Positions 2,900 to 31,282 of a stretch of DNA of 34,055 bases are shown piece by piece. Made by a program: the position numbers and the translations under genes. The stretch comes from Eubacteriales bacterium (GTDB lineage Bacteria; Bacillota; Clostridia; Lachnospirales; Lachnospiraceae), in NCBI GenBank assembly GCA_030536565.1, contig JAUNPT010000003.1, forward strand, positions 1-34,055, read 5' to 3'. Numbering within the stretch: the stretch's first letter is position 1; the number at the start of each line of letters is the position of its first letter. The notes under the pieces are model-generated. The model was not told where the DNA came from, did no database searches, and saw only the letters and a program-made list of their open reading frames with translations.

Positions 2900-2915
2900 T
2901 CTAAACTCCTATCTA

Positions 2916-7568: not shown

Positions 7569-7589
7569 TACGTCTGCACCCTGCATTTT
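7542..7589. terminator. Bidirectional intrinsic terminator between convergent plsC and transglutaminase genes
   Basis: AAAAT-A-CAGGGTGCA ... TGCACCCTG-C-ATTTT inverted repeat. Confidence 0.7.
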
Positions 7590-9951: not shown

Positions 9952-10004
9952 CTAAACCCTCTATTCCATAAGCTTATCCGTAAATCATTTATAATACTTC
10001 TTTT

Positions 10005-12064: not shown

Positions 12065-12162
12065 AGTTCCCCCCTGCCCAAATCCGTACTCCGGGCTTTG
12101 CAAGTAATTTTTTTACAGCTATTTCTGATACAAAATGCTATAACCTTATTATAGTATATATT

Positions 12163-13143: not shown

Positions 13144-13687
13144 AATCGCTCAACTCCTTTCTCATTCTCTTTATAACGGAGTAATACCGGTTCTTTGCTA
13201 TCATTGACTTAATTCCCAATATTCCTGCTATTTCCTCAAATGTATATCCCTGTTCAGCCTTAAGCATAAATATCTGCTTATCTTCTTCTCTTTCGTATCT
13301 AAGGTGTTCTTTCAGCCTGGCGGCCGCCAGTCTGTTGCACACCTCCATCTCCACATTCTGCCCGTCTTCCCTGTCATAACCATCAATTGTCTGTGTTGCA
13401 GACCGTTCATGAGACTGTCTGCTCCTGCTATAGTCGATTACCTTATTGCCGGCGATTCTGGTTATCCATGTTTTAAAAGCGCTTTTACTTTCATCAAACT
13501 GATAAAGGTTCTTAAGGATGGTGATAAATGTCTCCTGCGTAAGATCCATAGCAAGCTCCTCATCTGTTATCCTTCTGTAGATTTCTTTATAAATATACTT
13601 ATAATACTTGCCAACCAGCATTTCAGCCGCCTCTCTGTCATTACGCTCCAATATGCCATCAATCATTTTCTTATCTGACTCAAACAC
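13136..13687 (-). CDS. ECF RNA polymerase sigma-70 factor
   Basis: Region 2 AMDLTQETFI...FKTWITRIAGNKVID, region 4 GYTFEEIAGILG; GTG start with AAGGAGG. Confidence 0.92.
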   Translation of the reverse strand: MFESDKKMIDGILERNDREAAEMLVGKYYKYIYKEIYRRITDEELAMDLTQETFITILKNLYQFDESKSAFKTWITRIAGNKVIDYSRSRQSHERSATQTIDGYDREDGQNVEMEVCNRLAAARLKEHLRYEREEDKQIFMLKAEQGYTFEEIAGILGIKSMIAKNRYYSVIKRMRKELSDFE

Positions 13688-13710
13688 TTACTCCACCTCC
13701 TTCATAATTA

Positions 13711-13740
13711 CATACGAAGAACTCTTTTAAAAAGTTTTCA
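13711..13740 (-). promoter_or_regulatory. ECF-type (SigV/SigW/SigM-like) promoter, probably autoregulatory
   Basis: Minus strand TGAAAAC-TTTTTAAAAGAGTTCTT-CGTATG (AAAC-17-CGTA with T-tract), just upstream of the sigma gene SD. Confidence 0.65.
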
Positions 13741-13757
13741 ATATTTACATAATAAAA

Positions 13758-13807
13758 ATTAATGTGTCAGGCTGAAAATTGTAAAAATCACCTTCTGACA
13801 CACTAAT
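13758..13807 (-). terminator. Second hairpin / terminator upstream of the ECF promoter
   Basis: ATTAGTGTGTCAG ... CTGACACATTAAT followed by TTTT on the minus strand. Confidence 0.5.
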
Positions 13808-13816
13808 CATAATAAC

Positions 13817-13863
13817 AAAAAAAGCCTCACAAAACCATCTATTTGATAATTCTGTGAGACTTT
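13817..13863 (-). terminator. Intrinsic terminator of the alcohol dehydrogenase gene
   Basis: AAAGTCTCACAGAA ... TTTTGTGAGGCTTTTTTT, about 30 nt after the stop. Confidence 0.8.
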
Positions 13864-13891
13864 ATGTATATCTTTATTTTGTTTTACTGAT

Positions 13892-15103
13892 TTAGAAATC
13901 TACCTCTGTATCATAGTAACAGCACTTAAGAAGCTTTTCCATCTCCTCCTGTGTAGGAATACGTGGATTAGAACCTGTACAGGCATCAAGAATTGCATTG
14001 GCAGCAATGTCAGGAAGCTTCTTTAAAAATTCTTCCTCTGATACGAAACCTGTCTCTGCTGGAAGACCTCCCTCTCCATAATTCTTAATGCAGTGAGGAA
14101 TGTTAAGGTCATCGTTCATCTTACGAAGCATTGCAATAAGTGCATCAATCTTCTCTGCCTCTGTATTTCCGCCAAGCTTTAAGTAATCAGCAATAAATGC
14201 ATATCTCTTAGCGGCAGCAGCATCTTTAGAATTATACTTAATTACCTTAGGAAGGTACATAGCATTAGCAGCTCCATGAATAATATGTCCTCCTTCAAAT
14301 GCAGCACCTGTCTTATGTGCCATTGAATGAACAATACCAAGAAGGGCATTCGAGAATGCCATACCTGCAAGACACTGAGCATCATGCATCGCATCTCTTG
14401 CTTCCATATCTTCGTTATATGACTTAACGAGATTATCCTGAATCATTGTCATTGCATGAAGTGCAAGTGGGTCTGTATAGTTGCAGTTAGCTGTTGAAAC
14501 ATAAGCTTCTACCGCATGTGTCATGGCATCCATACCTGTATGGGCTACTAACTTAACCGGCATTGTATGTGCAAGCTCTGGGTCTACAATAGCCACGTCC
14601 GGTGTGATTTCAAAGTCTGCAATTGGGTACTTAATTCCCTTTGCATAATCTGTAATAATTGAAAATGCCGTAACCTCCGTAGCTGTTCCTGATGTTGATG
14701 AAACTGCACAGAAATGAGCCTTAGTACGAAGCTTTGGTAAACCAAATACCTTACACATATCCTCAAATGTTGTATCAGGGTACTCATACTTAATCCACAT
14801 AGCCTTAGCCGCATCAATTGGTGAACCACCGCCAATAGCAACAATCCAGTCAGGCTCAAACTCCTGCATAACAGCAGCGCCCTTCATAACAGTCTCTACT
14901 GAAGGGTCTGATTCAATACCTTCAAAAAGCTTAACCTCCATTCCAGCTTCTTTCAAATAATCTTCTGCTCTCTGTAAGAATCCATTACGCTTCATTGAGC
15001 CGCCACCTACGCAGATGATAGCTTTCTTACCCTGTAATGTCTTCAAAGCCTCAAGTGAACCTTTTCCGTGATACAAGTCTCTTGGTAAAGTAAAACGCAT
15101 CAT
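13892..15103 (-). CDS. Iron-containing alcohol dehydrogenase (NADPH-dependent butanol dehydrogenase-like)
   Basis: GGGS motifs, AIGGGSPIDAAK, TSGTATEVT, DAMTHAVE, GIVHSMAH, HGAANA. Confidence 0.93.
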   Translation of the reverse strand: MMRFTLPRDLYHGKGSLEALKTLQGKKAIICVGGGSMKRNGFLQRAEDYLKEAGMEVKLFEGIESDPSVETVMKGAAVMQEFEPDWIVAIGGGSPIDAAKAMWIKYEYPDTTFEDMCKVFGLPKLRTKAHFCAVSSTSGTATEVTAFSIITDYAKGIKYPIADFEITPDVAIVDPELAHTMPVKLVAHTGMDAMTHAVEAYVSTANCNYTDPLALHAMTMIQDNLVKSYNEDMEARDAMHDAQCLAGMAFSNALLGIVHSMAHKTGAAFEGGHIIHGAANAMYLPKVIKYNSKDAAAAKRYAFIADYLKLGGNTEAEKIDALIAMLRKMNDDLNIPHCIKNYGEGGLPAETGFVSEEEFLKKLPDIAANAILDACTGSNPRIPTQEEMEKLLKCCYYDTEVDF

Positions 15104-15135
15104 AATACTAATCCTCCATTGATAAAATTATTCGA

Positions 15136-15153
15136 TTGTTAAAATCACGACAA
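15136..15153. promoter_or_regulatory. Putative Rex operator 1
   Basis: TTGTTAA-AATC-ACGACAA versus clostridial Rex consensus TTGTTAA-N4-TTAACAA; lies between the adh promoter and SD. Confidence 0.55.
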
Positions 15154-15164
15154 TCTATGGTTTT

Positions 15165-15193
15165 ATTATAATACTGCTTTTACAATATTGCAA
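15165..15193 (-). promoter_or_regulatory. Sigma-A promoter of the alcohol dehydrogenase gene
   Basis: TTGCAA (15193-15188), 17 nt, TATAAT (15170-15165). Confidence 0.75.
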
Positions 15194-15222
15194 GTGAATA
15201 ATCTTTCATTTTCATTAATTTT

Positions 15223-15240
15223 ACGTTAAATAATTAACCT
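15223..15240. promoter_or_regulatory. Putative Rex operator 2
   Basis: ACGTTAA-ATAA-TTAACCT, palindromic GTTAA-N4-TTAAC core. Confidence 0.55.
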
Positions 15241-15280
15241 TGTCATCCGGTTTTTATATATAATTGAATAATTTTATTTT

Positions 15281-16645
15281 TTACGTATCCTCCGGCAGCT
15301 TTCTTAAAAAACTCAATATAAATGGAACTGCAGTTAAAAATGACAACACATCTGCAATCGGCTGAGCAATTTCAATTCCTGTAAGCCCAAAGGCTGCTGT
15401 CATAATAAGAAGCACCGGTATAAAATAAAGTCCACTTCTTAGCATGGAAAGAAATGTAGCACCAAGCGCATGCCCTGTACTTTGAAGCGTCATATTGGAC
15501 AACACACAGATCGGTTGGAAAAATAGTGCTATACACTGAAATCTAAGTGCTGCTGTACCAATTCTTATAACCTCCGGGTCATCTCTGAATATTACAATAG
15601 CCTGACTTGAAAAAATCAGCATAATTACTGCAAGAACCCCCAGCATAATCTGTGATAAGGTCAATGTGAATTTAAATGCCTTTTTAACCCGTAGATATTT
15701 TCCTGCGCCATAATTAAAACCGCACACTGGCTGGAAGCCTTGTCCCACGCCTAAACCTACTGAGAATACAAACATACTTATTCTTCCAACAATACTCATC
15801 GCTGCCACTGCGGCATCGCCATATACTGCCGCCTGTCCGTTAAGAAGCATCGTCGATATACTTCCAAGCCCCTGACGCACCAGACTTGGAAAGCCTGTAG
15901 TAACAATCTCTAACAGCTCCGATGGCTTTCTTGTGACATTTTTAATGGACAGCTTACACTGCGTCTTGCCTGTAAGAAACATACTTAGTAATATGCTAAA
16001 ACTAATAATTTGTGACAACGCTGTCGACAGTCCCGCGCCTGCAATCCCCATATCAAACACGAACATAAATACCGGGTCACCTATCATATTAAGAATTGCA
16101 CCCGCAAGAAGACCTATCATAGCAAGAGACGCACGTCCCTCATATCTTAGAATATTGTTCAAGGTAAAGCAGCTTGTCATAAATGGTGCTGCAATAATAA
16201 TATAGGTTACGTAGGTTCTTGCATAGGGCAGAATGGTGTCAGTACTTCCCAAAAGATACATAAGCGGAGTAAGGGTTAATGCACTGATTACGCTAATAAG
16301 TACCCCTATAGAAAACACCGTAAAAAATGCGGTAGATGCAATTCTTGAAGCATCCTCCCTATTCTTCTTACCCAACATTCTGGAGATAATGCTTCCCGAG
16401 CCCTGTCCAAACATAAATCCAAATGCCTGAAGCACTGCCATATAACCAAACACAATTCCAACTGCTCCAGAAGCGCTGGTTCCCAGCTGTCCTACAAACA
16501 TGGTATCAACCATATTATATATATTCGTTACCAGCATACTTAGGGTTGTAGGAATCCCAAGCTTAATAACCAGCTCTGACACTGGTGCTTTTGTCATCTT
16601 GTCATACTGGCTGTCATAATGTTCTTTCATCTGTAATAATTTCAT
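15281..16645 (-). CDS. MATE family efflux transporter (MepA-like)
   Basis: LGIPTTLSMLVTNIYNMVDTMFVG, LNMIGDPVF..MGIAGAGLST, GFNYGAG; about 12 TMs; track start 16711 falls inside the tkt terminator, so start set at ATG 16645 (16630/16657 alternatives). Confidence 0.9.
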   Translation of the reverse strand: MKLLQMKEHYDSQYDKMTKAPVSELVIKLGIPTTLSMLVTNIYNMVDTMFVGQLGTSASGAVGIVFGYMAVLQAFGFMFGQGSGSIISRMLGKKNREDASRIASTAFFTVFSIGVLISVISALTLTPLMYLLGSTDTILPYARTYVTYIIIAAPFMTSCFTLNNILRYEGRASLAMIGLLAGAILNMIGDPVFMFVFDMGIAGAGLSTALSQIISFSILLSMFLTGKTQCKLSIKNVTRKPSELLEIVTTGFPSLVRQGLGSISTMLLNGQAAVYGDAAVAAMSIVGRISMFVFSVGLGVGQGFQPVCGFNYGAGKYLRVKKAFKFTLTLSQIMLGVLAVIMLIFSSQAIVIFRDDPEVIRIGTAALRFQCIALFFQPICVLSNMTLQSTGHALGATFLSMLRSGLYFIPVLLIMTAAFGLTGIEIAQPIADVLSFLTAVPFILSFLRKLPEDT

Positions 16646-16671
16646 ATTCTGCCTCATTTTACTTATTCTTA

Positions 16672-16724
16672 AGAAAACCGCCCATACAAATGTCATCAAA
16701 AAAACTAACATTTATATGGGCGGT
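16672..16724 (-). terminator. Intrinsic terminator of tkt
   Basis: ACCGCCCATATAAATGT ... ACATTTGTATGGGCGGT-TTTCT on the minus strand. Confidence 0.8.
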
Positions 16725-16748
16725 CTTAATTTACATGCTGCAATAAAT

Positions 16749-18737
16749 CTACATTATACTCTTAACTGTCTTAACAACATTGTCAACAGTAAATCCAAAA
16801 TGCTCAAACAGTGTTGCTGCCGGACCTGATGCACCAAAGCCCTTCATTGAAATAACCCTGCCGTCTAAGCCAACATATCTGTACCAGCCAAAGTCTGAAA
16901 GTGCTTCAACTGCAACCCTCTTTCTGCAGCTCTTTGGTAAGATACTTTCCTTATATTCCTCTGACTGCTGTTCAAAAATATCCATACATGGCATACTGAC
17001 AACTCTTACGTCGATACCTTCTTTTGCCAGTTCTTTCTTTGCATCAGCTGCAAGTGAAACCTCTGAACCGCTGGCAATAATAATAGCATCTGGCTCTGCC
17101 TTAGTTTCCTTTGCAATTACATATGCACCCTTAAGAGCTTCCTTAGATGAGCCCTCCATCTGCGGAAGATTCTGTCTTGTAAGAACCAGTGCTGTTGGGT
17201 GGTCTGTCGATGTAACTGCATGCATCCATGCTGCAGCTGTCTCTGTTCTGTCACATGGTCTGTACACTGCGAAGTTAGGCATTGAACGAAAAGCCGCAAG
17301 CTGCTCAATTGGCTCATGAGTAGGGCCATCTTCTCCCACACCGATACTATCGTGTGTGAAGATATATGTCAATGGAAGCTTCATAAGAGCTGAAAGCCTT
17401 GCCATTGGTTTTGTATAATCGCTGAATACAAAGAATGTTGCAACATAAGCCTTCAATCCTCCATGTAATGCAATACCATTTCCGATTGCAGTCATAGCCT
17501 GTTCTCTTACACCAAAGTGAAGATTAGCACCCGCCGGAGTTTCCTTTGAGAAATCTCCTGCGTCCTTCATGTTAGTTTTATTAGATGGAGCTAAATCTGC
17601 TGAACCTCCAAATAAATTAGGCATCGACTCTTTAATTACATTAAGGATTGCACCGCCTGTACTTCTTGTCGCCTCTGGCTTTTCTGCCTTAGCCCAGTAT
17701 TCATCAGAATTAAAAAGCTCTGATAAATCTGCGCCATTATAGTACTTATCCCAAAGCTCTGCCAGCTCAGGAAACTTTTCGCAGTACTGTGCAAACATAT
17801 CATTCCAAGCAGCTTCAGCCTCTGCCTTCCTGGCAGCTATTGACTTGTAATTATCATATACTTCCTGTGGAACTTCAAAATCACCCTTACATGGCCAGCC
17901 AATATTCTCCTTTAATGCAGCAACATTATCAACGCCTAAAGGTTCACCATGAGCGCTTGCCTTACCCTGCTTAGCTGGGCAGCCAAAGCCAATGAGTGTA
18001 TTAACCTTAATCATTGAAGGTCTGGCTGTATCGGCCTTAGCTTCCTCAATTGCCCTGCCAATTGCTTCAAGGTCATTTCCATCGCTAACCTCAAGACACT
18101 GGAAGCCAAACGCCTCAAATCTCTTTGTAACGTCCTCCGTAAATGCAATATCTGTGCTTCCTTCAATCGAAATATTGTTAGAATCATAGAATACAATCAG
18201 CTTAGAAAGACCAAGTGTGCCTGCAAGCGAAAAACATTCTGATGAAATTCCTTCCATCATGCAGCCGTCCCCGCCTAAAACATATGTATAGTGGTCAACT
18301 ACCGGATAGCCTTCCCTGTTAAATACAGCAGCCAAATGTTTCTCGGCCATTGCCATACCGACAGCCATTGCCATACCCTGTCCTAAAGGACCTGTTGTTG
18401 CCTCAATACCCACTGTATGGCCATATTCTGGATGGCCAGGTGTAAGTGAGCCAAACTGTCTGAAATTCTTAATATCCTCTATTGAAAGGCTGCCATATCC
18501 AAAAAGATGAAGCAGTGAATATAAAAGCATAGAGCCATGTCCACCTGAAAGAATAAATCTGTCCCTGTTCTCCCAATCCGGATCAGCCGGATTATGATTC
18601 ATATGGTTAGCCCACAGCTCATACGCCATTGGTGCTGCTCCCAGCGGCAGACCCGGATGCCCTGAATTAGCCTTCTGTATCGCATCTGCTGACAGCACTC
18701 TTATTGCATTTACTGACATTTCTTCAATATTAGTCAT
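16749..18737 (-). CDS. tkt: Transketolase
   Basis: [55 protein letters not shown]; ATG 18737 behind AGGAGG. Confidence 0.97.
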
Positions 18738-18820
18738 TATTAACCTCCTAGCCATTATAGCTCTTATAAATAATTTTGTTATAATCTTAAGCGTCCGCAC
18801 TTAAAGTATGCAAAGACCTG

Positions 18821-21412
18821 TCAATCCTTAAAATCTGCCTCTGAAAGGAATATAACGTCTCCATTCTCACCATGCTTTTTCTTTAATCCGCCGAAAAATC
18901 TCTTGGACGCCCTTTTTTCTGAACGGACAATTGCCTGATTAATAATATCCTTGATATCATCTAATCTGATATTATCACTGCTGTTATGCAGCTGGTCAAT
19001 CTTAAGATACAACTGTAACAACGCATCGTCATCAACCTCATACTGTCTCTTTCTTGCGAACTTTCTAGCCATTTCCACAAGCTCATTAACAGTATACTGC
19101 TTAAGGACAATTCTATGATTGAAGGTATCTGTTAACTGTGGATTAAAATTAAGCAGTACATTCATCTCCGCATCCGAATCCTCAAAGATTATAATCATTC
19201 TGTCTGTATCCTGTGAAAGGCAGCTCATGATTTCTGTAATACGCTTTGGCTGAATTGCTCCGGCGCCCTCAACAATAAGGACAGTCCCCTTAAGCTTACC
19301 CATAGCTTTCATAATGCCGCGATGATTAATACTGTCACCTGTTGTCTTGGCAATCTTCTTAGGCCTGTCTGGATAAATATGATTTAAGGCCCTTACAATT
19401 GTCCTTGCAAGATCAACCTTGTCTGAGCTTGAATTGCCTGAAATAAGAATATTTCCCTTAACAGAATTATTCATTTTCATCTCATCTTCAATAGAGTTAA
19501 AATAATCAACCAGCTGGTTTTCAAGCCCCGGCATCTCGCGGTACTTCCTAAAGAGCTTTGCAAGCTCCCCGGATAATTTTTTATCATCATCAACCTGAGT
19601 ATCAAGCTCATCAACCTTATTCATAGGTGCATGCTCTGTCTCGTCTTTTTTGAATCTTCGTGAACTTGCATTTATATCCACGTCATCTAATTCCCTAGGC
19701 ATTTCCAGCAATTCTTCTTTATTTTCCTCATCAACAATGCCCTGTGCTGACGACAGCAGTGCTTCAGAAATCTTAGGCAGCTCGGCTGTTTCCAATGTTA
19801 CATTAGTGCCAGCTTCACCATCTTGTGTGTTCCCGCTGACAGCTTCATTAACCTCAAGCCCGTCAGCCGCTGCCATTTTCTCCGTCTTAGAGACCGCAAT
19901 ATTAAGGGCCGCTGCCTGCTCCAGTCTTACAGTAGCTTTACCTGTCCGGATTGCAAGGTCTGTCTTGGCCGCATTAATCATCATCTGGGCTTTGGCCTTC
20001 TGCCTTGCTGCCTGCTCATCAAATTCTTCGCCCCTTGCATCTGCCTTAAGCTTCTGCTCCGCCATAAGCTTTTCGTATGCAGCACTCTTCTCGTCCTTCT
20101 CATCAAGCATTCTGTCTAACTCTGCCTTGGAAAATTCTCTTGTATTCTGCTTGCCATAGCGTTCCTCCTGAACTGATTCAAACCAGTCTGCAAGACTTAT
20201 CTGCCCTTCTATCTGGTCATCTTCAGGTAACTCCTCCTGTGTAAGCGTTTCTTCTCCTGTTGCATGATATGGCTTAAGAGAAGCCTCCTCCTCAGCAAAT
20301 AAATCGCTCATATTCTTAGCAAGCTGCTCCTGAATATTCTGCGTATTATATAAATTATTATAATCTGGAACTGCAACCTCTATATCCATAGCCTGTGCCT
20401 TAGCATCAATCTGCTTCTGTGCCTCAAGCCTGTTTTCCTGTTCAGCCTCCTGATTAATCTGGTCATAACTGTCTGCAAGCTTTCTCTTAGCATTCTCAAT
20501 TAATTCCCTTAAGGACATCGACGCCTTATCAATGCCGCTGTTAGCTGTCTGCTCAACTGGTTCAAAGGCTTCAATCTCTCCATCTTCCTCTGTGCTGTCC
20601 AGAGCATTTTTAAAAATTGTCTTTACGTTTTCATTCTGCTGATTCTGAACTAAATCAATAGATATTCCCTGCTGCTCATCATCTTCTGATGCCTCGTCTT
20701 CACGGAACGCCTCCTCAACATCATCCTGTCTGATTCGCGCCAGTTCCTTCTGCTCCTCAAATGCCAGCTCTTTTGTATTCTCAATATCCTGCTTCCTGCT
20801 CGTAATATTGTCAAATATCCTTCTTTGTGTATTAGTAAGATTAACATTCAGGTCTTTCTTAAGCTTTACAGCCCTCTCGACATAAACACCATCCTGAAAC
20901 CACAGTACAATATCATCGCAGATTTTTACACATTCGTCCTTACGGTTCGTCTTGTAATACAATTCTGCAAGCTCATACATGTATTTTTCATCAATCTCAT
21001 GTTCCTTATAATCTTCCAGAATTTCAATCAGTTCATTATTAGAAGCTTTTTCAGCCTTCCTTAAATCATAAAACAGGATAAATCTGTTTACATCATGCTG
21101 CGACGCTTTCTCGTACTCATCATAGAGCTGGTCTGCATTATCAAAATCCTGCAGCTTAATAAGAAACTCTGTCAGCTTATAAATCAGCTTTCTTCCGCCC
21201 AGATTACGGTTATATGCAAGGATTGCCATATCTCTGGCTTCTTCAAAATCTCCTGCCGCTTCATGAACATTAATGACTGTAGCCAGCGTTGACCAGTCCT
21301 TTACCTTTATCCAGTTCATATTTCTGGCAATAGCAGACGCTTCATTGTACTGCTTCTTTGCTGCCAGCTTACGAATCTGTTCTACCTTCAGATTAAATTC
21401 ATATTTATCCAC
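18821..21412 (-). CDS. TPR-like N-terminus + acidic linker + degenerate SpoVK/CbbX-like AAA domain protein
   Basis: Helical TPR-like repeats in the first ~190 aa; C-term NILISGNSSSDKV (broken Walker A), VLIVEGAG (broken Walker B), NPQLTDTFNHRIVLKQYTVNELVEM (CbbX-like lid); GTG start 21412 behind AAAGGTGG. Confidence 0.7.
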   Translation of the reverse strand: MDKYEFNLKVEQIRKLAAKKQYNEASAIARNMNWIKVKDWSTLATVINVHEAAGDFEEARDMAILAYNRNLGGRKLIYKLTEFLIKLQDFDNADQLYDEYEKASQHDVNRFILFYDLRKAEKASNNELIEILEDYKEHEIDEKYMYELAELYYKTNRKDECVKICDDIVLWFQDGVYVERAVKLKKDLNVNLTNTQRRIFDNITSRKQDIENTKELAFEEQKELARIRQDDVEEAFREDEASEDDEQQGISIDLVQNQQNENVKTIFKNALDSTEEDGEIEAFEPVEQTANSGIDKASMSLRELIENAKRKLADSYDQINQEAEQENRLEAQKQIDAKAQAMDIEVAVPDYNNLYNTQNIQEQLAKNMSDLFAEEEASLKPYHATGEETLTQEELPEDDQIEGQISLADWFESVQEERYGKQNTREFSKAELDRMLDEKDEKSAAYEKLMAEQKLKADARGEEFDEQAARQKAKAQMMINAAKTDLAIRTGKATVRLEQAAALNIAVSKTEKMAAADGLEVNEAVSGNTQDGEAGTNVTLETAELPKISEALLSSAQGIVDEENKEELLEMPRELDDVDINASSRRFKKDETEHAPMNKVDELDTQVDDDKKLSGELAKLFRKYREMPGLENQLVDYFNSIEDEMKMNNSVKGNILISGNSSSDKVDLARTIVRALNHIYPDRPKKIAKTTGDSINHRGIMKAMGKLKGTVLIVEGAGAIQPKRITEIMSCLSQDTDRMIIIFEDSDAEMNVLLNFNPQLTDTFNHRIVLKQYTVNELVEMARKFARKRQYEVDDDALLQLYLKIDQLHNSSDNIRLDDIKDIINQAIVRSEKRASKRFFGGLKKKHGENGDVIFLSEADFKD

Positions 21413-21529
21413 TTTCAGATGCCACCTTTTCAATAAATTTATATAAACTCAGTTAAATCTTTCGTATTAAAAATGTAATTATATACGCCATAAGTTTATC
21501 ACAGCCAGTCTGGGTTGTAAACCTTTGCA

Positions 21530-24500
21530 CTACAGGAAATCAAAGGAGGCCTGCTGGTAATCCATTCTTGTGTATTCCAGCTGCGTCTCATTAGTCTGAC
21601 TGTAATAATCTACAACTACTGTCTGCTGCCTTTTATCAACAAGCTTCTGCCCCAGAATATAATTCACCGGAAATCTTCCAGTAATTGCTGGTGTTGCACC
21701 TCTGGCAGGTACAATCAGCTGTACATGATTTGTGGCTAACATCTTAAAAATTGGCTCCCATATGTATATATCCTTCGCCGCGCCAAATGGATTATCAATG
21801 AAAATCGTCTTGCCAACAAGGGTTGTTTCCTTTGATGCCGCATTCATATTAGAAATATAATTAATTATTGCTATAAGGAACTGAATATAGATACCCTGCG
21901 ACTGTCCCGTTGACCCCACAGCCTCCTCATACCTTAGATATCTGCTTTGCTCTTTTATGCGTTCTCTCTTATACAGATTAATGCGTACAAAATTCATATC
22001 TGTAACAATAACTGAAAACAGTCTTTTCCAGGTAAGCCTGCTGCGAATATATTTAAGCCTTTCCTCCGGAGTTTTAAAGCTCTCTGCCACAACAATAGTC
22101 TCATCAATATACGCAGACATTCTCTCCTTATACATATCCTCTTTCACGTAAGGAATCATAAGGCTTATAATAGAAATCTGTTTTCCATCAAGAGTTATAT
22201 TAGACAGCTTTGGAAGTCTGTCAAGCTCCGTCTTAATATTACAGCAGGTCTGGATACAACGGTTTTCAAAATTATCCTTTATCCGCTCCATATCATCTAT
22301 TCCCTTAGTGACACGTTCCTTTTCCAGCTGTATAAATGTATTGGTTTCATTAAGATTGTCTGCAAGCTGCCCTGTCTGTGTAATATTTTCCGGCAGCCTT
22401 ACCGAAATCCTGACCTCCGAAGCAAGCTCCTGCCCATTAAAGCTCTCAAGTGCAGCAATAAGCTTCTGCTTATGCTTTCCAAACTCATCAGCCTTCTTAA
22501 GCTCCAGCTTCTGAATTGCCGCATACTCCTTCTGGATTTCCGCATATTTATTAATCTCCACATCAATATCCTTAATTTCCTGCGGATTTATGTTAACAGG
22601 AAGCTTCATTCCGGCATTTTCCACTATGCGCTCCAAGTCCAGCATGATAACCTGCGTATTCTTATTCTCTGCTGCCAGCTTCTTTATTGCCGCCTCCTGA
22701 TTTTTAAGGCTGTCTTCCAGCTTCTTTACAAGCTCCTTATGCTGTTTTACAAAGCTTTCCGGATTATCACATGGAAACGGTTCATAACTTCCATACCTTT
22801 GCTCCAGCTGATTAATTCCATGAGCAATACTCCCCTCAAGCCTGTTCAGCAGTGCATTCTGAGCCTCCAGTTCACCATCTGTTTCGTTTAACTGGCTCCT
22901 AAGCCTTTTAATCTGCCCCTTGAGCTTCATGCACTGTGCGCCATCAAACTGCGGCACTTCACCATTTTTAACCTTCTGCCTGACCTCGTCAAATACAGTA
23001 CCCCTGTATTCCATTGACTGCACACATTTATGCATTGACAGCCGGTAATGGTTCATAAGCTTTTCCTTATCACCAAAATCCGAATTTTCTTGTGTAAGCA
23101 CAGCCTTTAATCCCAAAAACCTGCTTTCAATCTCCTCCATTGACAGAGCCAGTGCTTCGCCAGATGCGCTGGTTTTTTCATCATAATACTCTGCAAACGT
23201 AAGCTGCCATGTATGCTTAAGCTTCTCAAGCTCATTTCTTTTTGCAGTTATTCCTGCTGCCGCCTGACTGCAATCCTTTTCCAGCTTTGCAGCCCTCTTT
23301 GCTGCCAGTTCAAGCTTTTCTCTGTTTTGCCTTACTGTATCCTCAAGCTGTGAGAGCTTTTCATATTCCTCTGTAATCTGAGCATACATATCAGCTATTT
23401 TCTGAAGGGCTGCAAACTCTCCAGTAAGCTCCTCTACACTCCTGCTGCTGCTTTCCACCTGCTGCTTTACGCGTTCGAGCCGGTTATTGGCTGCTTCATG
23501 TATATTCTTTAGCTTTTCAAGCTCTCTTTTCTGTCCGGCAATTTTATCTGTCAATTCCTTAATAGACTGCTCCAACGTATCATCAGCTGAATTTGCACTC
23601 TGTACAAGAACAAATGTATAATCCTCCCACACCATCTGCTGACGGTCTGCGTTTTTATTAATGCCTGCCTCAAGATTTTTTACTTCCTCCATTGCAGCCC
23701 TTATTTCTGCCTCACATCGTGCATCATCTCTTAAAAATGACATATCCTTCATTGCAAAAACAATCAAATCCTTATTGATTTCAAGCTTAGTATCAATAAG
23801 CACCTGCTCACTGATTACCGGATAAACGCATGCACCTCTTTCAAAATTAGACAGAACCGCATCATTTTTAATTCTCTCAAAATCCCCCTTTATTACAAAG
23901 CTGTATTCAACAAACGGAGTCCTTTTAATAACATCTCTTTTCTGCCCCGGTGTAAGCATCTTAAACCAGTCATGTCCTTCAACAACATCTTCCCCGTACT
24001 GTGACTCAAGATATTGTTTAAGCTTGTCCCTTCTGGTGTCCTTACAGGAATATGTCCCCTCTCCGGCATTATTTATAAACGTCTTAAGCTCCTTTATCCT
24101 GTCAGTCAGTTCTCCTGACTGTGCCTCCATTCTTCTGTAAGTATCAAGCGTTATGTGAATAAGCTGTTCCAATGTTTCAGCACCATATATACTGAACAGC
24201 TTCTCCAGCTTAGTTTTAGACATATCAGACCGGGTCTTTGTTCCACTCAAAAGCTCCAGCTCTTTTTCATACATCTGCAAAGCTGCCTCTGCTTCCATAA
24301 GCCTGCTGCTGCATTTATCAAAATCATTTCTGGCTGCTTCCAGTTCCGCCTCTGCCTTCTGACTGCCAGCTCTTTGCATATCAAGACTGCGTCCTGCCTT
24401 ATCAGCTTCCGCCTGTGCGTTTTCAGCAACAAGCATTCCCCTTTCAGACAGCTTGTCCGCCATATCAGCTTCATACTGCTTTATCAGCTTCTGTGTATAT

Positions 24501-25951
24501 TCTTTAAGACCCAGCCCCCTCTCAACTGCCAAATCTGCCTCCCTGTACAGCTGCTTTTCCTTTTCCAGTTCCGCCTCTGTACTGGCATAGTCTGATTCCA
24601 TTGACTTAAGGCTCTCTTTATTACTTTCCAGAGCAGCCTGATAACTTTTATAAAATGCTGCTGCCAGCTCATTCAGTTCGTTTACTATATCCGAATGTTC
24701 ACGCAGCCTGTTCTTCATAGTTTCTTCTAATTCCTTTAAGGCTTTTTCATACTGCCTGTAATCAGCATAATCAGCTGCGGACTCAGTAATTCTGAGTTCT
24801 TCCTCAAGAAGTTTTAATTCCTTGTGCCGGCTGTCATAACCTGCTTTAGTCTCACCAATAAGCTCCTTCATACCCTCAAGCGAATTTTGCTGGCTCATAA
24901 TATCTGCAGCAGCAATATGACAGTTCTCCTCTGCCATTTCACTTTTCATTTTTTCTAGCAGAAGCTCCCCCTGTGAAAGCCTTTCCTCCTGCTGTGCTGC
25001 TATACACTTGACCGCCAAAAGCATGTTAAAAAGCATTTTTGCAGTCTTATCCTTTCTTGCATAAAGGTCTTCAAATGACTTGACGTACTCAGCGAACTGG
25101 GCTAATGCCGACATCTGGCTGTCATAATCACTCATCTGTGCATGCTTTTTAGACAGCTCCACCAGCTTATCCTTAATATCCATAAGCGTCTGCGCCATTC
25201 TGCCTTCATCATTATCTACTGCGAGCCTGTTATTAAAAGATTTCTGAATTATCTCCTCAATAAGCAGATCCTCAACAACCTTTCTGCTGGTGCGGTAATT
25301 AGTTTCAAAATAAGTACGCACATGCCCCTCTGTCTTGTTAATCCCCCTGACAATCTCCCATGCACTTTCAAATATTCCATACTGGCTGATAAAGCTCTGA
25401 TAGTCTCCCTTTCTGTCAAAAATACAGACAGAAACATTAAAATCATTCTTTTCTAGCTCCCTTAAATATGTCTTTAATCCGTTATATGTAATTCTTTCCC
25501 CATCACTTGCCAGTGGAAGATTTTTAATGTCATTGTCACCAAATTCCCTATAAAAAATGCAGTAATTAAAATATTCCACACTGGCTGACGACAGATTATC
25601 ATGCTGCCCCTCATCATCAGTGCTTCTTCCCTTCCTTGCACAAAACCCGGTTGTCATATACTTATAATTATCCTTCTGATAGCAGGAATCAAGCTTCCAC
25701 TCTACCAATGAATGAATTACAGTATTGCCTCCTCCTGCTCTGAAAAGTTTCTCGATTGGCTGCTTATCATCTAATGTGCAGTTAGGAAGCATGTTCTGAA
25801 GTAAAAGGAGCATCAAAAGGCTTTTTCCACCGCCGTTAGCCAAATCGTATATGGCGTTTTTACCATTAAATCTCATAATGAAATCATCATAAAACTGCGT
25901 TCCAAAATTGTACTTTACATTATTTACACGAACCCTGTTTATCTGTGGCAT
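21530..25951 (-). CDS. SMC-like ATPase, Wadjet JetC / MksB / MukB-like
   Basis: 1473 aa; N-terminal Walker A LANGGGKS, two long coiled-coil arms around a central non-coiled hinge, C-terminal signature STGQ and Walker B/D-loop IFIDNPFG. Confidence 0.85.
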   Translation of the reverse strand: MPQINRVRVNNVKYNFGTQFYDDFIMRFNGKNAIYDLANGGGKSLLMLLLLQNMLPNCTLDDKQPIEKLFRAGGGNTVIHSLVEWKLDSCYQKDNYKYMTTGFCARKGRSTDDEGQHDNLSSASVEYFNYCIFYREFGDNDIKNLPLASDGERITYNGLKTYLRELEKNDFNVSVCIFDRKGDYQSFISQYGIFESAWEIVRGINKTEGHVRTYFETNYRTSRKVVEDLLIEEIIQKSFNNRLAVDNDEGRMAQTLMDIKDKLVELSKKHAQMSDYDSQMSALAQFAEYVKSFEDLYARKDKTAKMLFNMLLAVKCIAAQQEERLSQGELLLEKMKSEMAEENCHIAAADIMSQQNSLEGMKELIGETKAGYDSRHKELKLLEEELRITESAADYADYRQYEKALKELEETMKNRLREHSDIVNELNELAAAFYKSYQAALESNKESLKSMESDYASTEAELEKEKQLYREADLAVERGLGLKEYTQKLIKQYEADMADKLSERGMLVAENAQAEADKAGRSLDMQRAGSQKAEAELEAARNDFDKCSSRLMEAEAALQMYEKELELLSGTKTRSDMSKTKLEKLFSIYGAETLEQLIHITLDTYRRMEAQSGELTDRIKELKTFINNAGEGTYSCKDTRRDKLKQYLESQYGEDVVEGHDWFKMLTPGQKRDVIKRTPFVEYSFVIKGDFERIKNDAVLSNFERGACVYPVISEQVLIDTKLEINKDLIVFAMKDMSFLRDDARCEAEIRAAMEEVKNLEAGINKNADRQQMVWEDYTFVLVQSANSADDTLEQSIKELTDKIAGQKRELEKLKNIHEAANNRLERVKQQVESSSRSVEELTGEFAALQKIADMYAQITEEYEKLSQLEDTVRQNREKLELAAKRAAKLEKDCSQAAAGITAKRNELEKLKHTWQLTFAEYYDEKTSASGEALALSMEEIESRFLGLKAVLTQENSDFGDKEKLMNHYRLSMHKCVQSMEYRGTVFDEVRQKVKNGEVPQFDGAQCMKLKGQIKRLRSQLNETDGELEAQNALLNRLEGSIAHGINQLEQRYGSYEPFPCDNPESFVKQHKELVKKLEDSLKNQEAAIKKLAAENKNTQVIMLDLERIVENAGMKLPVNINPQEIKDIDVEINKYAEIQKEYAAIQKLELKKADEFGKHKQKLIAALESFNGQELASEVRISVRLPENITQTGQLADNLNETNTFIQLEKERVTKGIDDMERIKDNFENRCIQTCCNIKTELDRLPKLSNITLDGKQISIISLMIPYVKEDMYKERMSAYIDETIVVAESFKTPEERLKYIRSRLTWKRLFSVIVTDMNFVRINLYKRERIKEQSRYLRYEEAVGSTGQSQGIYIQFLIAIINYISNMNAASKETTLVGKTIFIDNPFGAAKDIYIWEPIFKMLATNHVQLIVPARGATPAITGRFPVNYILGQKLVDKRQQTVVVDYYSQTNETQLEYTRMDYQQASFDFL

Positions 25952-26679
25952 GTTCCCTCCTGCTCTTTATCAGCATCAGCTTCTTCACCAAGAAGCTGTG
26001 CAAAACGTCCCTTATAATCATCAAAATAATTCTCAATCAAAGCTCTGAAGCGGTCTGTTGGATAAAACCTGTCACTTACGTCCACGAGCAGCTCCTGTGA
26101 TACCAAAAAATTGAATACCATTTTAACAAAGCCTGATTTGGAATTTCTTGCAGCTCTAAGCCCTGACTGTTCTTCCGCTGTTGTAACCGGAAGCTCGTCC
26201 CAGCTTAAAGCAATCTGCTTAAAACTGTTCTCACAAACTTCATCAATAACAAGCCCCTGCTTGTCACTTATAACAATCCTGCTTGTCTTATCAACATTTG
26301 CAATAACGTCCTCTACCCTTATAAATTCAGCAAATGTAGAGCTTACTGTATCACTGTAAAATTCTGTAATTGTATTGTATATAACAAAATATGCCAGATA
26401 CAAATCCTTATTGACCTTAAGCCCCATAGCTTTTCTTAATTCTTCATTTGTGTACCCGAAAACCTGATTATTCTCACCGGGACTGATGTAGAGTCCATTA
26501 TTATACTCATATAAATTAAGGTTCATCTTTTTTAATGACATATGAACAATATCATATACCTCGGCATTTGTGTTATATTCCTGATAAAGTGCTCCATTAT
26601 TCCCCTTTTCAGAAACATTTTCTCCCATAATAAGACGTGACACAATATCTAATGCCCTGTCCAGATTTCTATTTTCCAC
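25939..26679 (-). CDS. JetB/MksE-like KITE subunit (DUF6063-like)
   Basis: About 246 aa just upstream of and overlapping the SMC gene; resembles DUF6063 (N.vFGytNeeL, C-terminal winged-helix-like FL..q.L....YPTdRF); GTG start 26679 behind GGAGGT. Confidence 0.65.
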   Translation of the reverse strand: MENRNLDRALDIVSRLIMGENVSEKGNNGALYQEYNTNAEVYDIVHMSLKKMNLNLYEYNNGLYISPGENNQVFGYTNEELRKAMGLKVNKDLYLAYFVIYNTITEFYSDTVSSTFAEFIRVEDVIANVDKTSRIVISDKQGLVIDEVCENSFKQIALSWDELPVTTAEEQSGLRAARNSKSGFVKMVFNFLVSQELLVDVSDRFYPTDRFRALIENYFDDYKGRFAQLLGEEADADKEQEGTCHR

Positions 26680-26704
26680 GCTTATCTCTACCTCCCAAAA
26701 ATGT

Positions 26705-28231
26705 TCATATACCACTGTTTATCTGTGGTTTAACAATTTCAAAAATCAGGTTTGTAATCTCTGTATCCTCACATATGTGAAGCAATTCCTCCTGCCTGTC
26801 TATCTCAAAGGAAACTTCATCTTTGCCTTCATAATGCTCTTTTAGGATTTCATCTATAAAGTCCTGGCTTTCCATCTTTAAGCCGCCTATTACATAATTA
26901 TTCTTATGGCACAGATTCACAAAAAAACCATAGTAATCACCATTTTTTAATATACCATCACCATATGCCTTAGCCATTGCTTCATTAAATTCCTTTAATG
27001 ATATTCTTTTCCTCTTATTAAGACATGCAACAAGGTTATCCATAATAAAGATATAGTTATCCCTGATTCTTAAATTAGCCAGCTCGTCCTCAAAAATAAT
27101 ATCCTCGGGCGTATCAAGGCTGACACGCTCGGCCTTTTCATATTTTGCAGGTTTAACAAGCAAAGCATTATCAATGGAGTTAACCGGAAACCGTTTCTTA
27201 ATATTAGGCTTAAACAGTGGTCTTAAAAATTGCTCAAGAAGCTGTGCCCTGTCTGTTTTAATCATATCGTTTAAAGCTGTGGAAAAATCCATATGGCTTC
27301 TCAAACGTCCCAGTTTTGCCCTCCTTACAGCATCATCTGTCAGCTTCTGCATATCCGTACAGGCACGCAGCAGATCTCCATGCTTATTCATAGCAACCTT
27401 TAACTGGTTTTCCAGGTTATATATATCACTTATAGAATTATAATAGCCTTCACCTGCACCTCCTGTGCTTTCCATTTTCTTTAGTGCAGCTTCGATAAGC
27501 TCCTTATTTTTCTTAAAGAGCTTTTCTTCATCTGCAAACCAGCGCATTCCAGTGTCCACAAATTCCTCATAGGCTTCAATTCCGGCAAACACGTCACAAG
27601 ACAGTGTGGACAGCACCTCATTTTTCTTTAACTGGAGTCTGTTTACTTCCTCATTTATACGCTCAATAACCTCTGTCCCGCCCTTAAAATTCTGTGTCTT
27701 AATCATTTTTTCAAGCAGCAGCTGCTGTACACTTATTTTACTTTCGTCCTTAATCTCCTTCGTATCCAGATAAAACTCTACAGCCTCCGGACTTATTGAA
27801 TACCACACTGTGGAATCTGTAATCTGGCTTTCAATTATCTTCTGTCTGGATACTCTCTTTTTCTTATCAACCGGGTCAAAATATGTAAATTCAAAGGGCT
27901 TCCCATCATTTTTCACCTTATCGAATATATAATCTGCAAGCCCCTTATACTCCTCATTTGTAAGCTCCAGACCGAAATCACCTTTTACCACTTTTGTAAT
28001 AAATTCCAGATACTCAGGATAAGTAACATCTTTTTCCTTAAAATTATTTTCCTCAATAAAGAAACGAAGAATTGCCATGAGAATATAACCCATATCCAGA
28101 ATCTCATATTTTCCCTCCTTGTACTGGGAAAATGAAATGTCTATGAGCTTAAAAAATGGATAGTATTTCTTCAGATTAAGCATCCTCTCCCTATGGTCTG
28201 AGATTATCTCATTATGCATATTTAACGCCAT
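26705..28231 (-). CDS. JetA/MksF-like kleisin subunit
   Basis: 508 aa, first gene of the trio; helical and coiled-coil rich; FYLDTKEI...ISVQQLLLEKMIK.QNF segment recalls type III JetA; assigned largely by position and size. Confidence 0.6.
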   Translation of the reverse strand: MALNMHNEIISDHRERMLNLKKYYPFFKLIDISFSQYKEGKYEILDMGYILMAILRFFIEENNFKEKDVTYPEYLEFITKVVKGDFGLELTNEEYKGLADYIFDKVKNDGKPFEFTYFDPVDKKKRVSRQKIIESQITDSTVWYSISPEAVEFYLDTKEIKDESKISVQQLLLEKMIKTQNFKGGTEVIERINEEVNRLQLKKNEVLSTLSCDVFAGIEAYEEFVDTGMRWFADEEKLFKKNKELIEAALKKMESTGGAGEGYYNSISDIYNLENQLKVAMNKHGDLLRACTDMQKLTDDAVRRAKLGRLRSHMDFSTALNDMIKTDRAQLLEQFLRPLFKPNIKKRFPVNSIDNALLVKPAKYEKAERVSLDTPEDIIFEDELANLRIRDNYIFIMDNLVACLNKRKRISLKEFNEAMAKAYGDGILKNGDYYGFFVNLCHKNNYVIGGLKMESQDFIDEILKEHYEGKDEVSFEIDRQEELLHICEDTEITNLIFEIVKPQINSGI

Positions 28232-28276
28232 TGCAATCCACTCTACTTTCTACATTCCTTTTTATACAGTCTTTTA

Positions 28277-28873
28277 TTAAAGCTGCGTCCTTCCATCAAG
28301 CGCACGAAGAAGCGTTACCTCGTCAATATACTCTAAATCTCCGCCTACCGGTACTCCACTGGCAATCCTGGTCACCTTAATTCCTGTTGGCTTTACAAGC
28401 CTGCCAATATACATAGCTGTCGTTTCACCCTCCAGACTTGAATTTGTGGCGATTATAACCTCTCCCACATCACCCTCAAGCCTTTTCATAAGCTCTTTAA
28501 GCTTTATATCCCCCGGGCCGATTCCAAGCATTGGGCTGATTGCGCCATGCAGCACATGATAAACACCCTCATACTTGCCAGTCTTTTCATATGCCGCCAT
28601 ATCCCTGGTATGTTCAACTACCATAATAGTCCTGTGATCGCGGTTAACATTAGCACATATAGGGCACAGCTCCTTATCTGTCAGGGTAAAGCACTCTTTA
28701 CAATAATGTATGTTTGCTTTAGCTTCGGTAATTGCTGACGACAGACCTTCCACTTCTTCCTTTGGCATGTTTATAATGTGAAATGCCAGGCGCTGGGCGC
28801 TCTTTGCCCCAACCCCTGGTAATCTCGACAGCTGTTCTATTAATTTATTAATATGTTCACTGTATATGTCCAT
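28277..28873 (-). CDS. recR: Recombination mediator RecR
   Basis: [13 protein letters not shown] HhH, C4 Zn finger, [33 protein letters not shown]. Confidence 0.97.
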
Positions 28874-29223
28874 TAAAACAGGCCTCCGCCTAATCCGCCC
28901 AGACCTCCTGTAATCTTAGACATCTGTGCCTGAGACTCCTCCTCACACTTACGAAGGGCTTCATTAGCTGCTGCTACAATTAAATCTTCCAACATCTCAA
29001 CATCATCTGGATCTACTGCCTCCGGGTCAATCTTAACCTTAGTTATCTCTCTTTTACCAGTCACAGTAACCTCTACAACTCCACCACCTGCTGCAGCTGT
29101 AAATTCTTTTGATTCAAGGGCTGCCTGCTGCTCCTCCATCTGTCTTTGCATTCTCTGGGCCTGCTTCATTAAATTATTCATATTACCAGGCATACCGCCT
29201 GGAAAACCACCTCTTTTAGCCAT
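28873..29223 (-). CDS. ybaB: YbaB/EbfC nucleoid-associated protein
   Basis: [38 protein letters not shown]; TAATG coupling to both neighbours. Confidence 0.96.
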
Positions 29224-30866
29224 TAGATAAATTCCTCCTTATCATCTACTTCAATTTCTTTATTTATCAACTCACGGATATCTATATACCTTGAATGAAA
29301 ATCATCATTTTCCTCAAGCATAGTACATATTATATTAACCCGTATGCCTGTGCGTTCCTCGATTAATTCGACAAGCTTTTCTATATTTTCTTCTCTGCTT
29401 ATTACGCCGTAAGCACTTCTTGATTTTAACATAATCTCAAGACTTTTTCTATCCTCTGACAACGTAACATTTGCCTGCATCAAAATATTTACCTGCATAG
29501 GGTCATCATAAGAACGTATTATTGTATCCCACTGGGCGGCAATCTGTGCTATGTCCTCTGGAAGTGCATCTATTATACGCCTTTCTGCAGGCTTTAGGAC
29601 TGCTGCCTCATTTTCCTGTAAAACAGCCTCATCTGTCCCCATATTACGGGCTGTGTATACACCCGCTGGAATTACTCCATTTTTTATATTTTCAAGTGCC
29701 TCCTGCATCTGCTTTTCCAGCACTGATATTCTGCTTACAAGCGTTGCTGTGTCGGCTGTCCTGTCCATAGCCGGGCGCATAAGCTTAATGAGCGTAACCT
29801 CTATCTTTATTCTTTTCTGCGTTGAAAACTTTAAATCTGCTGACAGCTCTGACAGCACCCTTATATAACGCATCAGTGTCTCTACATCAATAGTACCCGC
29901 ATCTTCTCTGAGCGTTTCCATATTCTCCGCAGAAACCTCTATAACATCTGCAATTTTTTCCTGATTGTCAGAAGACTGGATAAGCAGAAGATTCCTAAGA
30001 TACCATATGAAGTCATTTACAAACTGCGCCAAATCTCTGCCCTGCATGATTATTTCTTCCAAAAGCTCCATACAGCCTGATGTATCTCCAGAAAGAATTA
30101 TCTTAAGTGCTCTTGAAAATACATCTGTATCAACTGCCCCAAGCACCTCTAACACATTTTCGTACTTTAAATCCCTGCCGAGGTAGAAGGCAATACACTG
30201 ATCCAATAGACTTAGTGCATCTCGCATGGAACCATCGGCAGCCTTCGCCACATATCTTACAGCCTTATCCTCTACATTAATCTTTTCAGCCTCCATAAGC
30301 TGTGAAAGCCTGCCTGCAATTGTATCTATGGAAATCCTATGAAAATCGTATCTCTGACATCTTGAGAGTATTGTTATTGGTATCTTGTGCGCCTCTGTTG
30401 TCGCAAGAATAAATATAACATAAGACGGTGGTTCCTCCAATGTCTTTAAAAGCGCATTAAAGGCTCCTATTGACAGCATATGAACCTCATCTATAATGTA
30501 GACCTTATAACGTCCTTCAGTTGGAGAATACAAAACCTCATCGCGAATCTCCCTGATATTATCCACACCATTATTAGATGCCGCATCAATTTCAATTACA
30601 TTCATTGATGTTCCTGCTGCAATTGCCCTGCAGGAAGGGCACTCGCCGCACGGATTTCCATCCTGCGGATTTTCGCAGTTAACTGCCTTGGCTAATATTT
30701 TGGCTACCGTTGTCTTACCAGTTCCCCTCGTTCCGCAGAACAAATAAGCATGACCTATCCTATCCGCCTTAATCTGATTCTGCAATGTTGTTACTATATG
30801 ATCCTGCCCCTTTACTTCTTTGAAATCCAAAGGGCGCCATTTTCTGTACAGTGCCTGATATGACAT
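29223..30866 (-). CDS. dnaX: DNA polymerase III subunit gamma/tau
   Basis: MSYQALYRKWRP, GTRGTGKTT, EIDAASN, IIDEVHML, TILSRCQ, GSMRDALS; start ATG 30866. Confidence 0.97.
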   Translation of the reverse strand: MSYQALYRKWRPLDFKEVKGQDHIVTTLQNQIKADRIGHAYLFCGTRGTGKTTVAKILAKAVNCENPQDGNPCGECPSCRAIAAGTSMNVIEIDAASNNGVDNIREIRDEVLYSPTEGRYKVYIIDEVHMLSIGAFNALLKTLEEPPSYVIFILATTEAHKIPITILSRCQRYDFHRISIDTIAGRLSQLMEAEKINVEDKAVRYVAKAADGSMRDALSLLDQCIAFYLGRDLKYENVLEVLGAVDTDVFSRALKIILSGDTSGCMELLEEIIMQGRDLAQFVNDFIWYLRNLLLIQSSDNQEKIADVIEVSAENMETLREDAGTIDVETLMRYIRVLSELSADLKFSTQKRIKIEVTLIKLMRPAMDRTADTATLVSRISVLEKQMQEALENIKNGVIPAGVYTARNMGTDEAVLQENEAAVLKPAERRIIDALPEDIAQIAAQWDTIIRSYDDPMQVNILMQANVTLSEDRKSLEIMLKSRSAYGVISREENIEKLVELIEERTGIRVNIICTMLEENDDFHSRYIDIRELINKEIEVDDKEEFI

Positions 30867-30981
30867 ATGCACACCTGACCTTTCTACAACTGCAACATTC
30901 ACTTTCAGAGCTTTGCGTGCCTGCACGCACGTCTGAGATGATTATTTATATGGATGTTGTACTTCATTGTTCACGCAAAAT

Positions 30982-31246
30982 ACCGCGCGTTCTGCTTCGA
31001 GCAACGCTCCACAGACGTTACCGATACAGTTAGCTCGATTCAGGCACCCTTCCGGCACACAGGAGGTTTCACTTAAGGCTGCTTCATTCCTGACCTGACC
31101 TGATTCATGAACTCTTGTTGCGAAAGACCCAAATGTCAACACCACTTTTATCGGGCAGCTCCATAAATAATTGCCCTCGGCCGAACATCACCCCAGCTAT
31201 AGCGGATTGCTGGTACAGGGTGCCGCTGACTCCCCGGCTGCGCGGT
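30982..31246 (-). ncRNA. ffs: Large bacterial SRP RNA (scRNA) with Alu domain
   Basis: Helix 8 motif TCAGGTCAGGAATGAAGCAGC; 5' Alu-like GGGGAGTCAGCGGCACCCTGTACCAGCAATCCGCT; complementary ends ACCGCGC/GCGCGGT; about 265 nt upstream of dnaX, as in Bacillus. Confidence 0.95.
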
Positions 31247-31253
31247 AAACTTT

Positions 31254-31282
31254 ATTATACTTATAACCTTAGTATTTGTCAA
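31254..31282 (-). promoter_or_regulatory. Perfect sigma-A promoter of ffs
   Basis: TTGACA (31282-31277), 17 nt, TATAAT (31259-31254); predicted start about 31247, matching the SRP 5' end. Confidence 0.9.

Follow-up and report, generated by a model that had tools for sequence, protein, structure and literature searches.

A stretch of 34,055 nucleotides from a Lachnospiraceae genome (Eubacteriales bacterium, GenBank assembly GCA_030536565.1, contig JAUNPT010000003.1, positions 1 to 34,055; hereafter the window) carries three genes, jetA, jetB and jetC, which code for the kleisin, the KITE protein and the SMC-type ATPase of a type III Wadjet, and which lack the fourth gene, jetD, for the nuclease. 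The trio, a kleisin-KITE-SMC operon of the Muk/Jet class without a nuclease, is probably an accessory condensin similar to MksBEF, domesticated from a type III Wadjet and acting as a dispensable helper to Smc-ScpAB, a reading that we favour with restrained confidence. Since JetD is missing, the complex would not be a strict member of Wadjet, and most likely it works like MksBEF. The source genome comprises 2.19 Mb in 226 contigs and is 86.9% complete, which bounds all negative results given for it as a whole; the named relatives nearest to it are Lachnospira. The three genes are as follows.

26705..28231, minus strand: jetA, kleisin, 508 amino acids (PADLOC, predicted fold).
25939..26679, minus strand: jetB, KITE protein, about 246 amino acids from the GTG at 26679 (PADLOC, Pfam DUF6063, predicted fold).
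21530..25951, minus strand: jetC, SMC-type ATPase with split head and coiled-coil arms, 1473 amino acids (PADLOC, motifs, heptads).

jetA and jetB, as well as jetB and jetC, abut or overlap. The longest open reading frame (ORF) for jetB, at 25939-26715, gives 258 amino acids from its first GTG, and the start found in the relatives is the GTG at 26679, with 246 amino acids. A preliminary description of this DNA, made from the letters alone, had proposed three tightly packed genes with the sizes and order of kleisin-KITE-SMC, a type III Wadjet origin, kleisin and KITE folds, and a JetC with split ABC head motifs and coiled-coil arms; ORF coordinates and lengths, profiles, structure models and motif positions agree with it on each of these. 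Indeed, the proteins match the type III profiles end to end: JetA matches the PADLOC model JetA3 (PDLC00560, E 6.8e-223, residues 4-499), JetB matches JetB3 (PDLC00571, E 2e-107) and Pfam DUF6063 (E 2e-48), and JetC matches JetC3 over 1-1473 of 1473 residues (PDLC00581, E 0), with weak matches only to the type I and type II JetC profiles (E 2e-4 and 0.016). In the order and size of its genes (about 510, 240 and 1470 amino acids) the trio also agrees with type III Wadjet, as it does in Walker A and a DN-type Walker B.

The JetA model (predicted local distance difference test, pLDDT, 86) has its best fold matches in the Wadjet-II kleisin 9qe0_E (E 1.5e-5) and in MukF entries, among them 3rpu_A (Z 13.3, root-mean-square deviation 10.4, 231 residues aligned). 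The JetB model (pLDDT 82.5) is closest to 8dk1_E/F and 8as8_C, which are chains of type I JetABC, to MukE and to Nse1-Nse3, the scores being modest (best E 2e-3; Z 8.8, root-mean-square deviation 4.7, 165 residues aligned); the chains that we take to be KITE proteins were picked among its matches by length. In JetC, Walker A lies at residue 39, the signature near 1347 and Walker B near 1383, and heptad periodicity is found at residues 281-350, 771-910 and 1191-1260 (z 3.6-7.5), being weaker or absent in the other intervals scanned. Its C-terminal part is similar to the SbcC/MukB Walker B clusters (score 0.96); searched against the sequences of solved structures, profiles of the JetC head returned no SMC protein, the best ABC-type match having E 1.3e-4.

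The feature that sets the trio apart from type III Wadjet is the absence of jetD, both at the locus and, in most carriers, elsewhere in the genome. In a sample of 350 Lachnospiraceae genomes, about one per genus, JetB3 was found in 78; a match at E < 1e-50 defines the present lineage and the rest are distant, or canonical, type III, so that 48 genomes carry this lineage and 30 the distant type only, while two have both. All canonical jetB loci (32/32) have a jetD about 2.5 kb upstream, and in 20/20 of those drawn it lies directly before jetA. A strong JetD3 match is missing in 44 of the 48 family carriers of the jetD-less lineage; in two of the other four it belongs to a second, canonical operon, and the remaining two are genomes G143 and G014, the latter with jetD two genes ahead of its own jetA. 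Within the genus, 37 of 43 genomes carry the lineage; strong JetD3 was not found in 41 of the 43 and is present in two, in both cases beside a separate canonical operon. The loci of named relatives, among them the cultured [Clostridium] fimetarium DSM 9179 and Lachnospira hominis NSJ-43, were judged for jetD within the flanks of the locus.

Profile searches for a JetD of any type gave none in 51 of 64 carriers. The JetD_C domain was matched in the other 13, of which 12 were examined: five are type I, each sitting behind its own type I JetC, two are fragments of type I, and five are type III, three of them in separate canonical operons, one in the sister operon described below and one unplaced. 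The JetD3 model detects the JetD of the sister lineage at E 3e-51 and 9e-46; therefore, a cognate JetD could have been seen. The own genome yields no JetD with PF09983, PDLC00592, the JetD of a relative, or a profile of 28 sequences (best E 0.055), and its five Toprim matches resemble what we take to be topA, gyrB, dnaG, topB and recR. A weak PDLC00591 match in the same genome was discarded, being a glycosidase-like ORF; likewise, a jetD split off from the trio by dnaX-ybaB-recR was considered, and the recurrent gene of 357 amino acids upstream of dnaX proved to be a phosphofructokinase. A JetD encoded in trans, which had been put forward at the outset, thus finds no support in the own genome or in most of the family and genus genomes.

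A different, unlinked effector, namely an unrecognised nuclease or another host protein that replaced JetD, would fit the strong conservation of all three subunits, and the searches covered JetD-like effectors only. However, beside the trio the only genes that recur in 48 loci are recR and a gene coding for a TPR protein; the latter is nearly universal in the family also where jetABC is absent, and the failure of the 28-sequence JetD profile in the own genome points in the same direction, leaving an effector of this kind improbable.

Concatenated JetABC trees were built with 92 and with 78 rows, after removal of nine loci that were duplicates or partial and of two genomes that lacked a subunit in the stretch taken. 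The trio is nested among jetD-bearing type III operons: a single clade unites 70 jetD-less copies (support 0.84 and 0.88 with FastTree; 85 in the Shimodaira-Hasegawa-like approximate likelihood ratio test, SH-aLRT, on a subset of 27 rows), its sister being G014 and L030, a pair that bears jetD, and the outgroups bear jetD as well. Outside the family, six of 399 Clostridia scored match at E 1e-35 or better, all six with jetD directly before jetA. The JetDs of G014 and L030 retain the acidic Toprim motifs, whose roles are presumed here, and the JetD tree joins this pair with the same near outgroups (support 90). The simplest reading of these sequences would be a single loss of jetD. The sister operon of G014 (L057:10967-14006) has a GH2 glycosidase and an ArsR-type regulator between jetD and jetA; the inserted genes possibly represent an early step in the uncoupling of jetD.

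Inheritance of the jetD-less lineage is mostly vertical, as anticipated. Taking as species marker RpoB alone, which is a weak one, JetABC and RpoB distances correlate with a Spearman coefficient of 0.73 (n=47 carriers, permutation p 0.002), compared with 0.40 for canonical type III (n=12) and a median of 0.76 in 12-genome subsamples of the clade. Moreover, 10 of 14 well-supported RpoB splits recur in JetABC within the clade, versus one of six for canonical type III. No close relative of the trio was found among 72,556 plasmids and 50,697 phages: the plasmid collection gave one partial distant match and the phage collection zero. The Bacillus plasmid H1 offered only a partial DUF6063 gene and was not used.

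The sequence comparisons further show that jetABC is under purifying selection. From four close pairs, two of which share a genome (four other pairs are largely saturated), dN/dS is 0.024-0.074 for jetA, 0.061-0.117 for jetC and 0.009-0.094 for jetB, except for 0.35 in a pair with dS 0.017; the range for dnaX is 0.038-0.082. Walker A is kept in 70/70 copies, and the signature and Walker B in 69/70, the exception being a truncated contig. Frames are full-length across about 47 genera, with a median JetC of 1484 amino acids. A decaying Wadjet remnant without current function would be in line with the frequent loss of the trio and with one locus where jetA is split into two ORFs; nevertheless, it is already largely refuted and barely credible, because dN/dS is low, the ATPase motifs are near-invariant and the clade tracks RpoB. 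JetD3 counts, trees and dN/dS all indicate that the loss of jetD is old and clade-wide rather than a recent decay, in keeping with the original proposal.

In Walker B, asparagine stands in place of the usual glutamate of ABC ATPases in 69/70 members of the clade and in 20/20 canonical type III proteins; since it is common to canonical type III, it is no sign that the clade is dead or alive. The type III JetCs examined, canonical ones included, have no obvious switch histidine (residues ~1383-1420 of the window JetC). Two further observations concern the sequences of the trio. At L025:8434-9986, jetA is divided into ORFs of 409 and 126 amino acids, by a frameshift or an assembly error. In the pairs L007/L008 and L022/L021, jetABC is about 1.3-2.4 times as divergent at synonymous sites as dnaX and recR, and the picture is mixed in two other pairs; weaker codon bias or allele exchange may be suggested.

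The trio had also been proposed as a replacement for the main condensin. This did not survive the search of the carriers: ScpA is present in 64/64, and a full Smc in 5/5 of those checked; in the own genome, smc is split over two contig ends, and scpA is also present. Since all 64 carriers have ScpA, the trio is an addition and not a replacement. In this respect it differs from MukBEF, which replaced Smc-ScpAB and took over the main condensin role, whereas the carriers of the trio keep Smc-ScpAB and the trio itself is often lost. By fold, JetA is nearest to MukF and JetB is near MukE, and JetC is presumably similar in length to MukB. Additional intact Wadjets coexist with the trio, namely type I beside its own JetC in 5/64 carriers and type III in three more. 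A contig of 60,455 bases in G351 (C2; L234) was considered as a coexisting plasmid and rejected: its first 20 kb (1-20000) consist of phage tail genes. Besides contractile-tail genes, the same interval, L234:1-20000, encodes a serine recombinase, and a reverse transcriptase lies there beside a tail-fibre gene, a pair suggestive of a diversity-generating retroelement.

A published hypothesis derives MukBEF and MksBEF from Wadjets that lost the nuclease and were thereby domesticated (PMC10586767; 10.1101/2025.03.10.642339), and several reports bear on how a trio without JetD could act. Type I JetABC is reported to extrude loops symmetrically without JetD (PMC10889018). Plasmid restriction is described as requiring all four Wadjet subunits, and MksBEF of Pseudomonas aeruginosa as contributing to chromosome organisation and as having likely arisen by JetD loss (PMC10586767). 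According to the structural study of type II, nuclease loss may lock Wadjet into a segregation role, and type III is called largely uncharacterised (10.1101/2025.03.10.642339); the intact Bacillus thuringiensis operon that serves there as type III representative is reported to block plasmids (10.1101/2022.10.04.510915). As the trees suggest, an early Lachnospiraceae lineage would have taken up a jetD-jetA-jetB-jetC operon, which settled close to the junction of recR and the TPR gene and lost jetD once. If the trio works as type I Wadjet and MukBEF do, two motors joined as a JetA2B4C4 dimer would bind ATP and reel in DNA from both sides without cutting it; the loops would form on the cell's own chromosome, and chromosomal DNA would be compacted or separated, as is reported for P. 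aeruginosa MksBEF.

The motor might instead act on extrachromosomal circles without cutting, trapping small circles that have been fully extruded and hindering their replication or segregation. Wadjet ancestry and repeated loss, which is typical of accessory defence genes, are compatible with such an action, and type I JetABC is reported to accumulate on plasmids without JetD in vitro (PMC10889018). On the other hand, the reported need for all four subunits in restriction argues against it, the trio departs from canonical type III in its fixed site and vertical descent, and carriers still acquire intact Wadjets of types I and III; circle-trapping is therefore possible and rather unlikely.

Among known systems, P. 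aeruginosa MksBEF is likewise a nuclease-less kleisin-KITE-SMC operon beside Smc-ScpAB, with a proposed origin by JetD loss (PMC10586767; 10.1101/2025.03.10.642339). It differs from the present trio, which is a type III lineage in Firmicutes and is likened to MksBEF by description; a chromosome role is reported for the Pseudomonas complex and would extend to the trio by analogy. MksB of Mycobacterium smegmatis, described as linked to replisome positioning, is likewise a Mks-type condensin that a Gram-positive bacterium has in addition to SMC, though in another phylum (PMC11329512).

The neighbourhood of the trio consists of housekeeping genes, in a fixed chromosomal arrangement that, together with the agreement with the species tree, differentiates it from canonical type III, which tracks the tree weakly. 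The features around the trio are listed here.

28232..28276, minus strand: recR-jetA spacer of 45 nucleotides, at the position of jetD in intact type III operons.
28277..28873, minus strand: recR, with a Toprim domain (Pfam RecR domains and Toprim_4).
28873..30926, minus strand: dnaX and ybaB (Pfam).
30983..31282, minus strand: signal recognition particle (SRP) RNA gene (Rfam RF01854 at 30983-31245) with a promoter match at 31282-31254.
18821..21433, minus strand: gene for a protein of 870 amino acids with TPR, acidic linker and SpoVK-like AAA remnant, downstream of jetC.

jetA starts 45 nucleotides past the recR stop, as described previously, and the gap contains no terminator-like site and folds no better than its shuffles (z 0.27). 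A sigma-70-type promoter match (12/12) precedes the SRP RNA gene at 31282-31254, and a single transcript from it through jetC is plausible on the sequence; a promoter-like site inside recR (10/12, 28479-28452) could also drive jetABC. An antisense match to the sigma-70 consensus (12/12) lies within dnaX at 30470-30497 on the plus strand. The claim that no integrase, transposase or other defence gene is nearby also stood: Pfam found no integrase or transposase among the 26 ORFs of the window, and PADLOC, run on seven ORFs around the locus, matched the three jet genes only. GC content at the locus (36-44%) is in line with the window, and a repeat search around it gave only chance-like matches. 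The flanks had been said to encode no TOPRIM-type protein, which is true in so far as RecR is not a JetD, and untrue to the letter, as RecR has a Toprim domain (PF13662, E 4e-23).

The association with recR is confined to part of the carriers. recR adjoins the trio in 27 of 30 close loci, but in 19 of 48 family carriers; 29 of the 48 lie away from recR, including the earliest-branching jetD-less groups. The trio is directly before the TPR gene in 29/48 carriers, and 32 touch recR or the TPR gene. In four Lachnospira genomes without the trio, recR is joined directly to the TPR gene and transketolase, an absence that is probably due to one loss, given that three of them are nearly identical in the RpoB tree. 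From this arrangement the trio appears to occupy a resident recR-TPR junction and to stay conserved when moved away. The statement that it is built into a core operon is thus right for Lachnospira and for the 19 carriers, and fails for the rest of the family; the trio is dispensable, as the clean junction reveals. The TPR gene, with open frames of about 470 to 1420 amino acids and no curated family, occurs in 324 of 350 family genomes and follows recR where jetABC is absent; it is a core gene, and was rejected as effector or dedicated subunit of the trio.

Other sites were noted in the comparison. The one upstream of dnaX (L013:3562-5563; the same in L004, L005 and L012) holds variable cargo, unlike the stable jetABC site past recR, and in L013 this includes a type II restriction-modification pair. 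In an early-branching subclade (L041, L042, L047 and L055), jetABC precedes a malic enzyme gene and a cluster that contains a transglutaminase, a second stable site, with moxR in three of the four loci. At L040:7063-7974 (G222), an ORF of 303 amino acids without Pfam match is found between jetA and jetB.

Two readings would give recR a functional meaning. A DNA clamp coupled to replication or repair through DnaX and RecR, and co-expressed with them for work at forks or gaps, would agree with the adjacency of recR in the close loci, with its Toprim domain and its place in the position of jetD, and with the report that M. smegmatis MksB follows replisomes (PMC11329512). Yet the majority of family carriers, the earliest branches among them, have the trio apart from recR, other genes interrupt recR-jetA in at least four loci, and recR-TPR is an ordinary junction without jetABC, so that such coupling appears quite unlikely. 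Still further from expectation, and highly improbable, would be that the JetD-less motor recruited the Toprim-fold RecR as its partner, extrusion then scanning the chromosome and delivering recombination repair instead of a nuclease; if true, this would be an SMC-guided repair system made from a defence machine.

Several points weigh against an accessory condensin. Support for the clade that implies a single loss is only moderate (0.84-0.88; SH-aLRT 85), and the JetD tree came with a long-branch warning. RpoB disagrees with five of the 29 well-supported JetABC splits (five of seven for canonical type III); the lineage is present in only 48/350 family genomes, unlike a needed condensin, and with a single gain the RpoB tree of 77 tips demands 9-13 losses. 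In carrier G143, a jetD that is not linked to the trio lies on a contig of 2.2 kb, with no second jetB found, and the own genome is only 87% complete. An eroded JetD-docking patch is not visible in JetA, JetB or JetC, in a comparison with only five near jetD-bearing sequences. Finally, given the asparagine in Walker B, it is by extrapolation that ATP turnover and loop extrusion are ascribed to any type III complex.

Members of the jetD-less lineage have probably been catalogued as Wadjet III already, judging from the origin of the PADLOC profiles: those for the Doron systems are described as derived from lists of loci already in print, each cluster having five sequences or more (PMC8565338), and the library used here is a later version. 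No paper on the jetD-less clade was found in searches of an open literature library; the supplementary tables of Doron et al. 2018, outside that scope, may list these loci. The idea of domestication is already in print. As the defence-finder profiles match the trio perfectly, a search under relaxed rules would likely score it as an anti-plasmid system in gut bacteria that are common. The transitions that led to MukBEF and MksBEF date far back, and their intermediate stages are unclear. Within this one family, three states are open to comparison, namely sister operons that bear jetD, a large clade without it, and close relatives whose site is clean and empty; the domestication hypothesis is therefore directly testable in an independent, structurally uncharacterised type III lineage.

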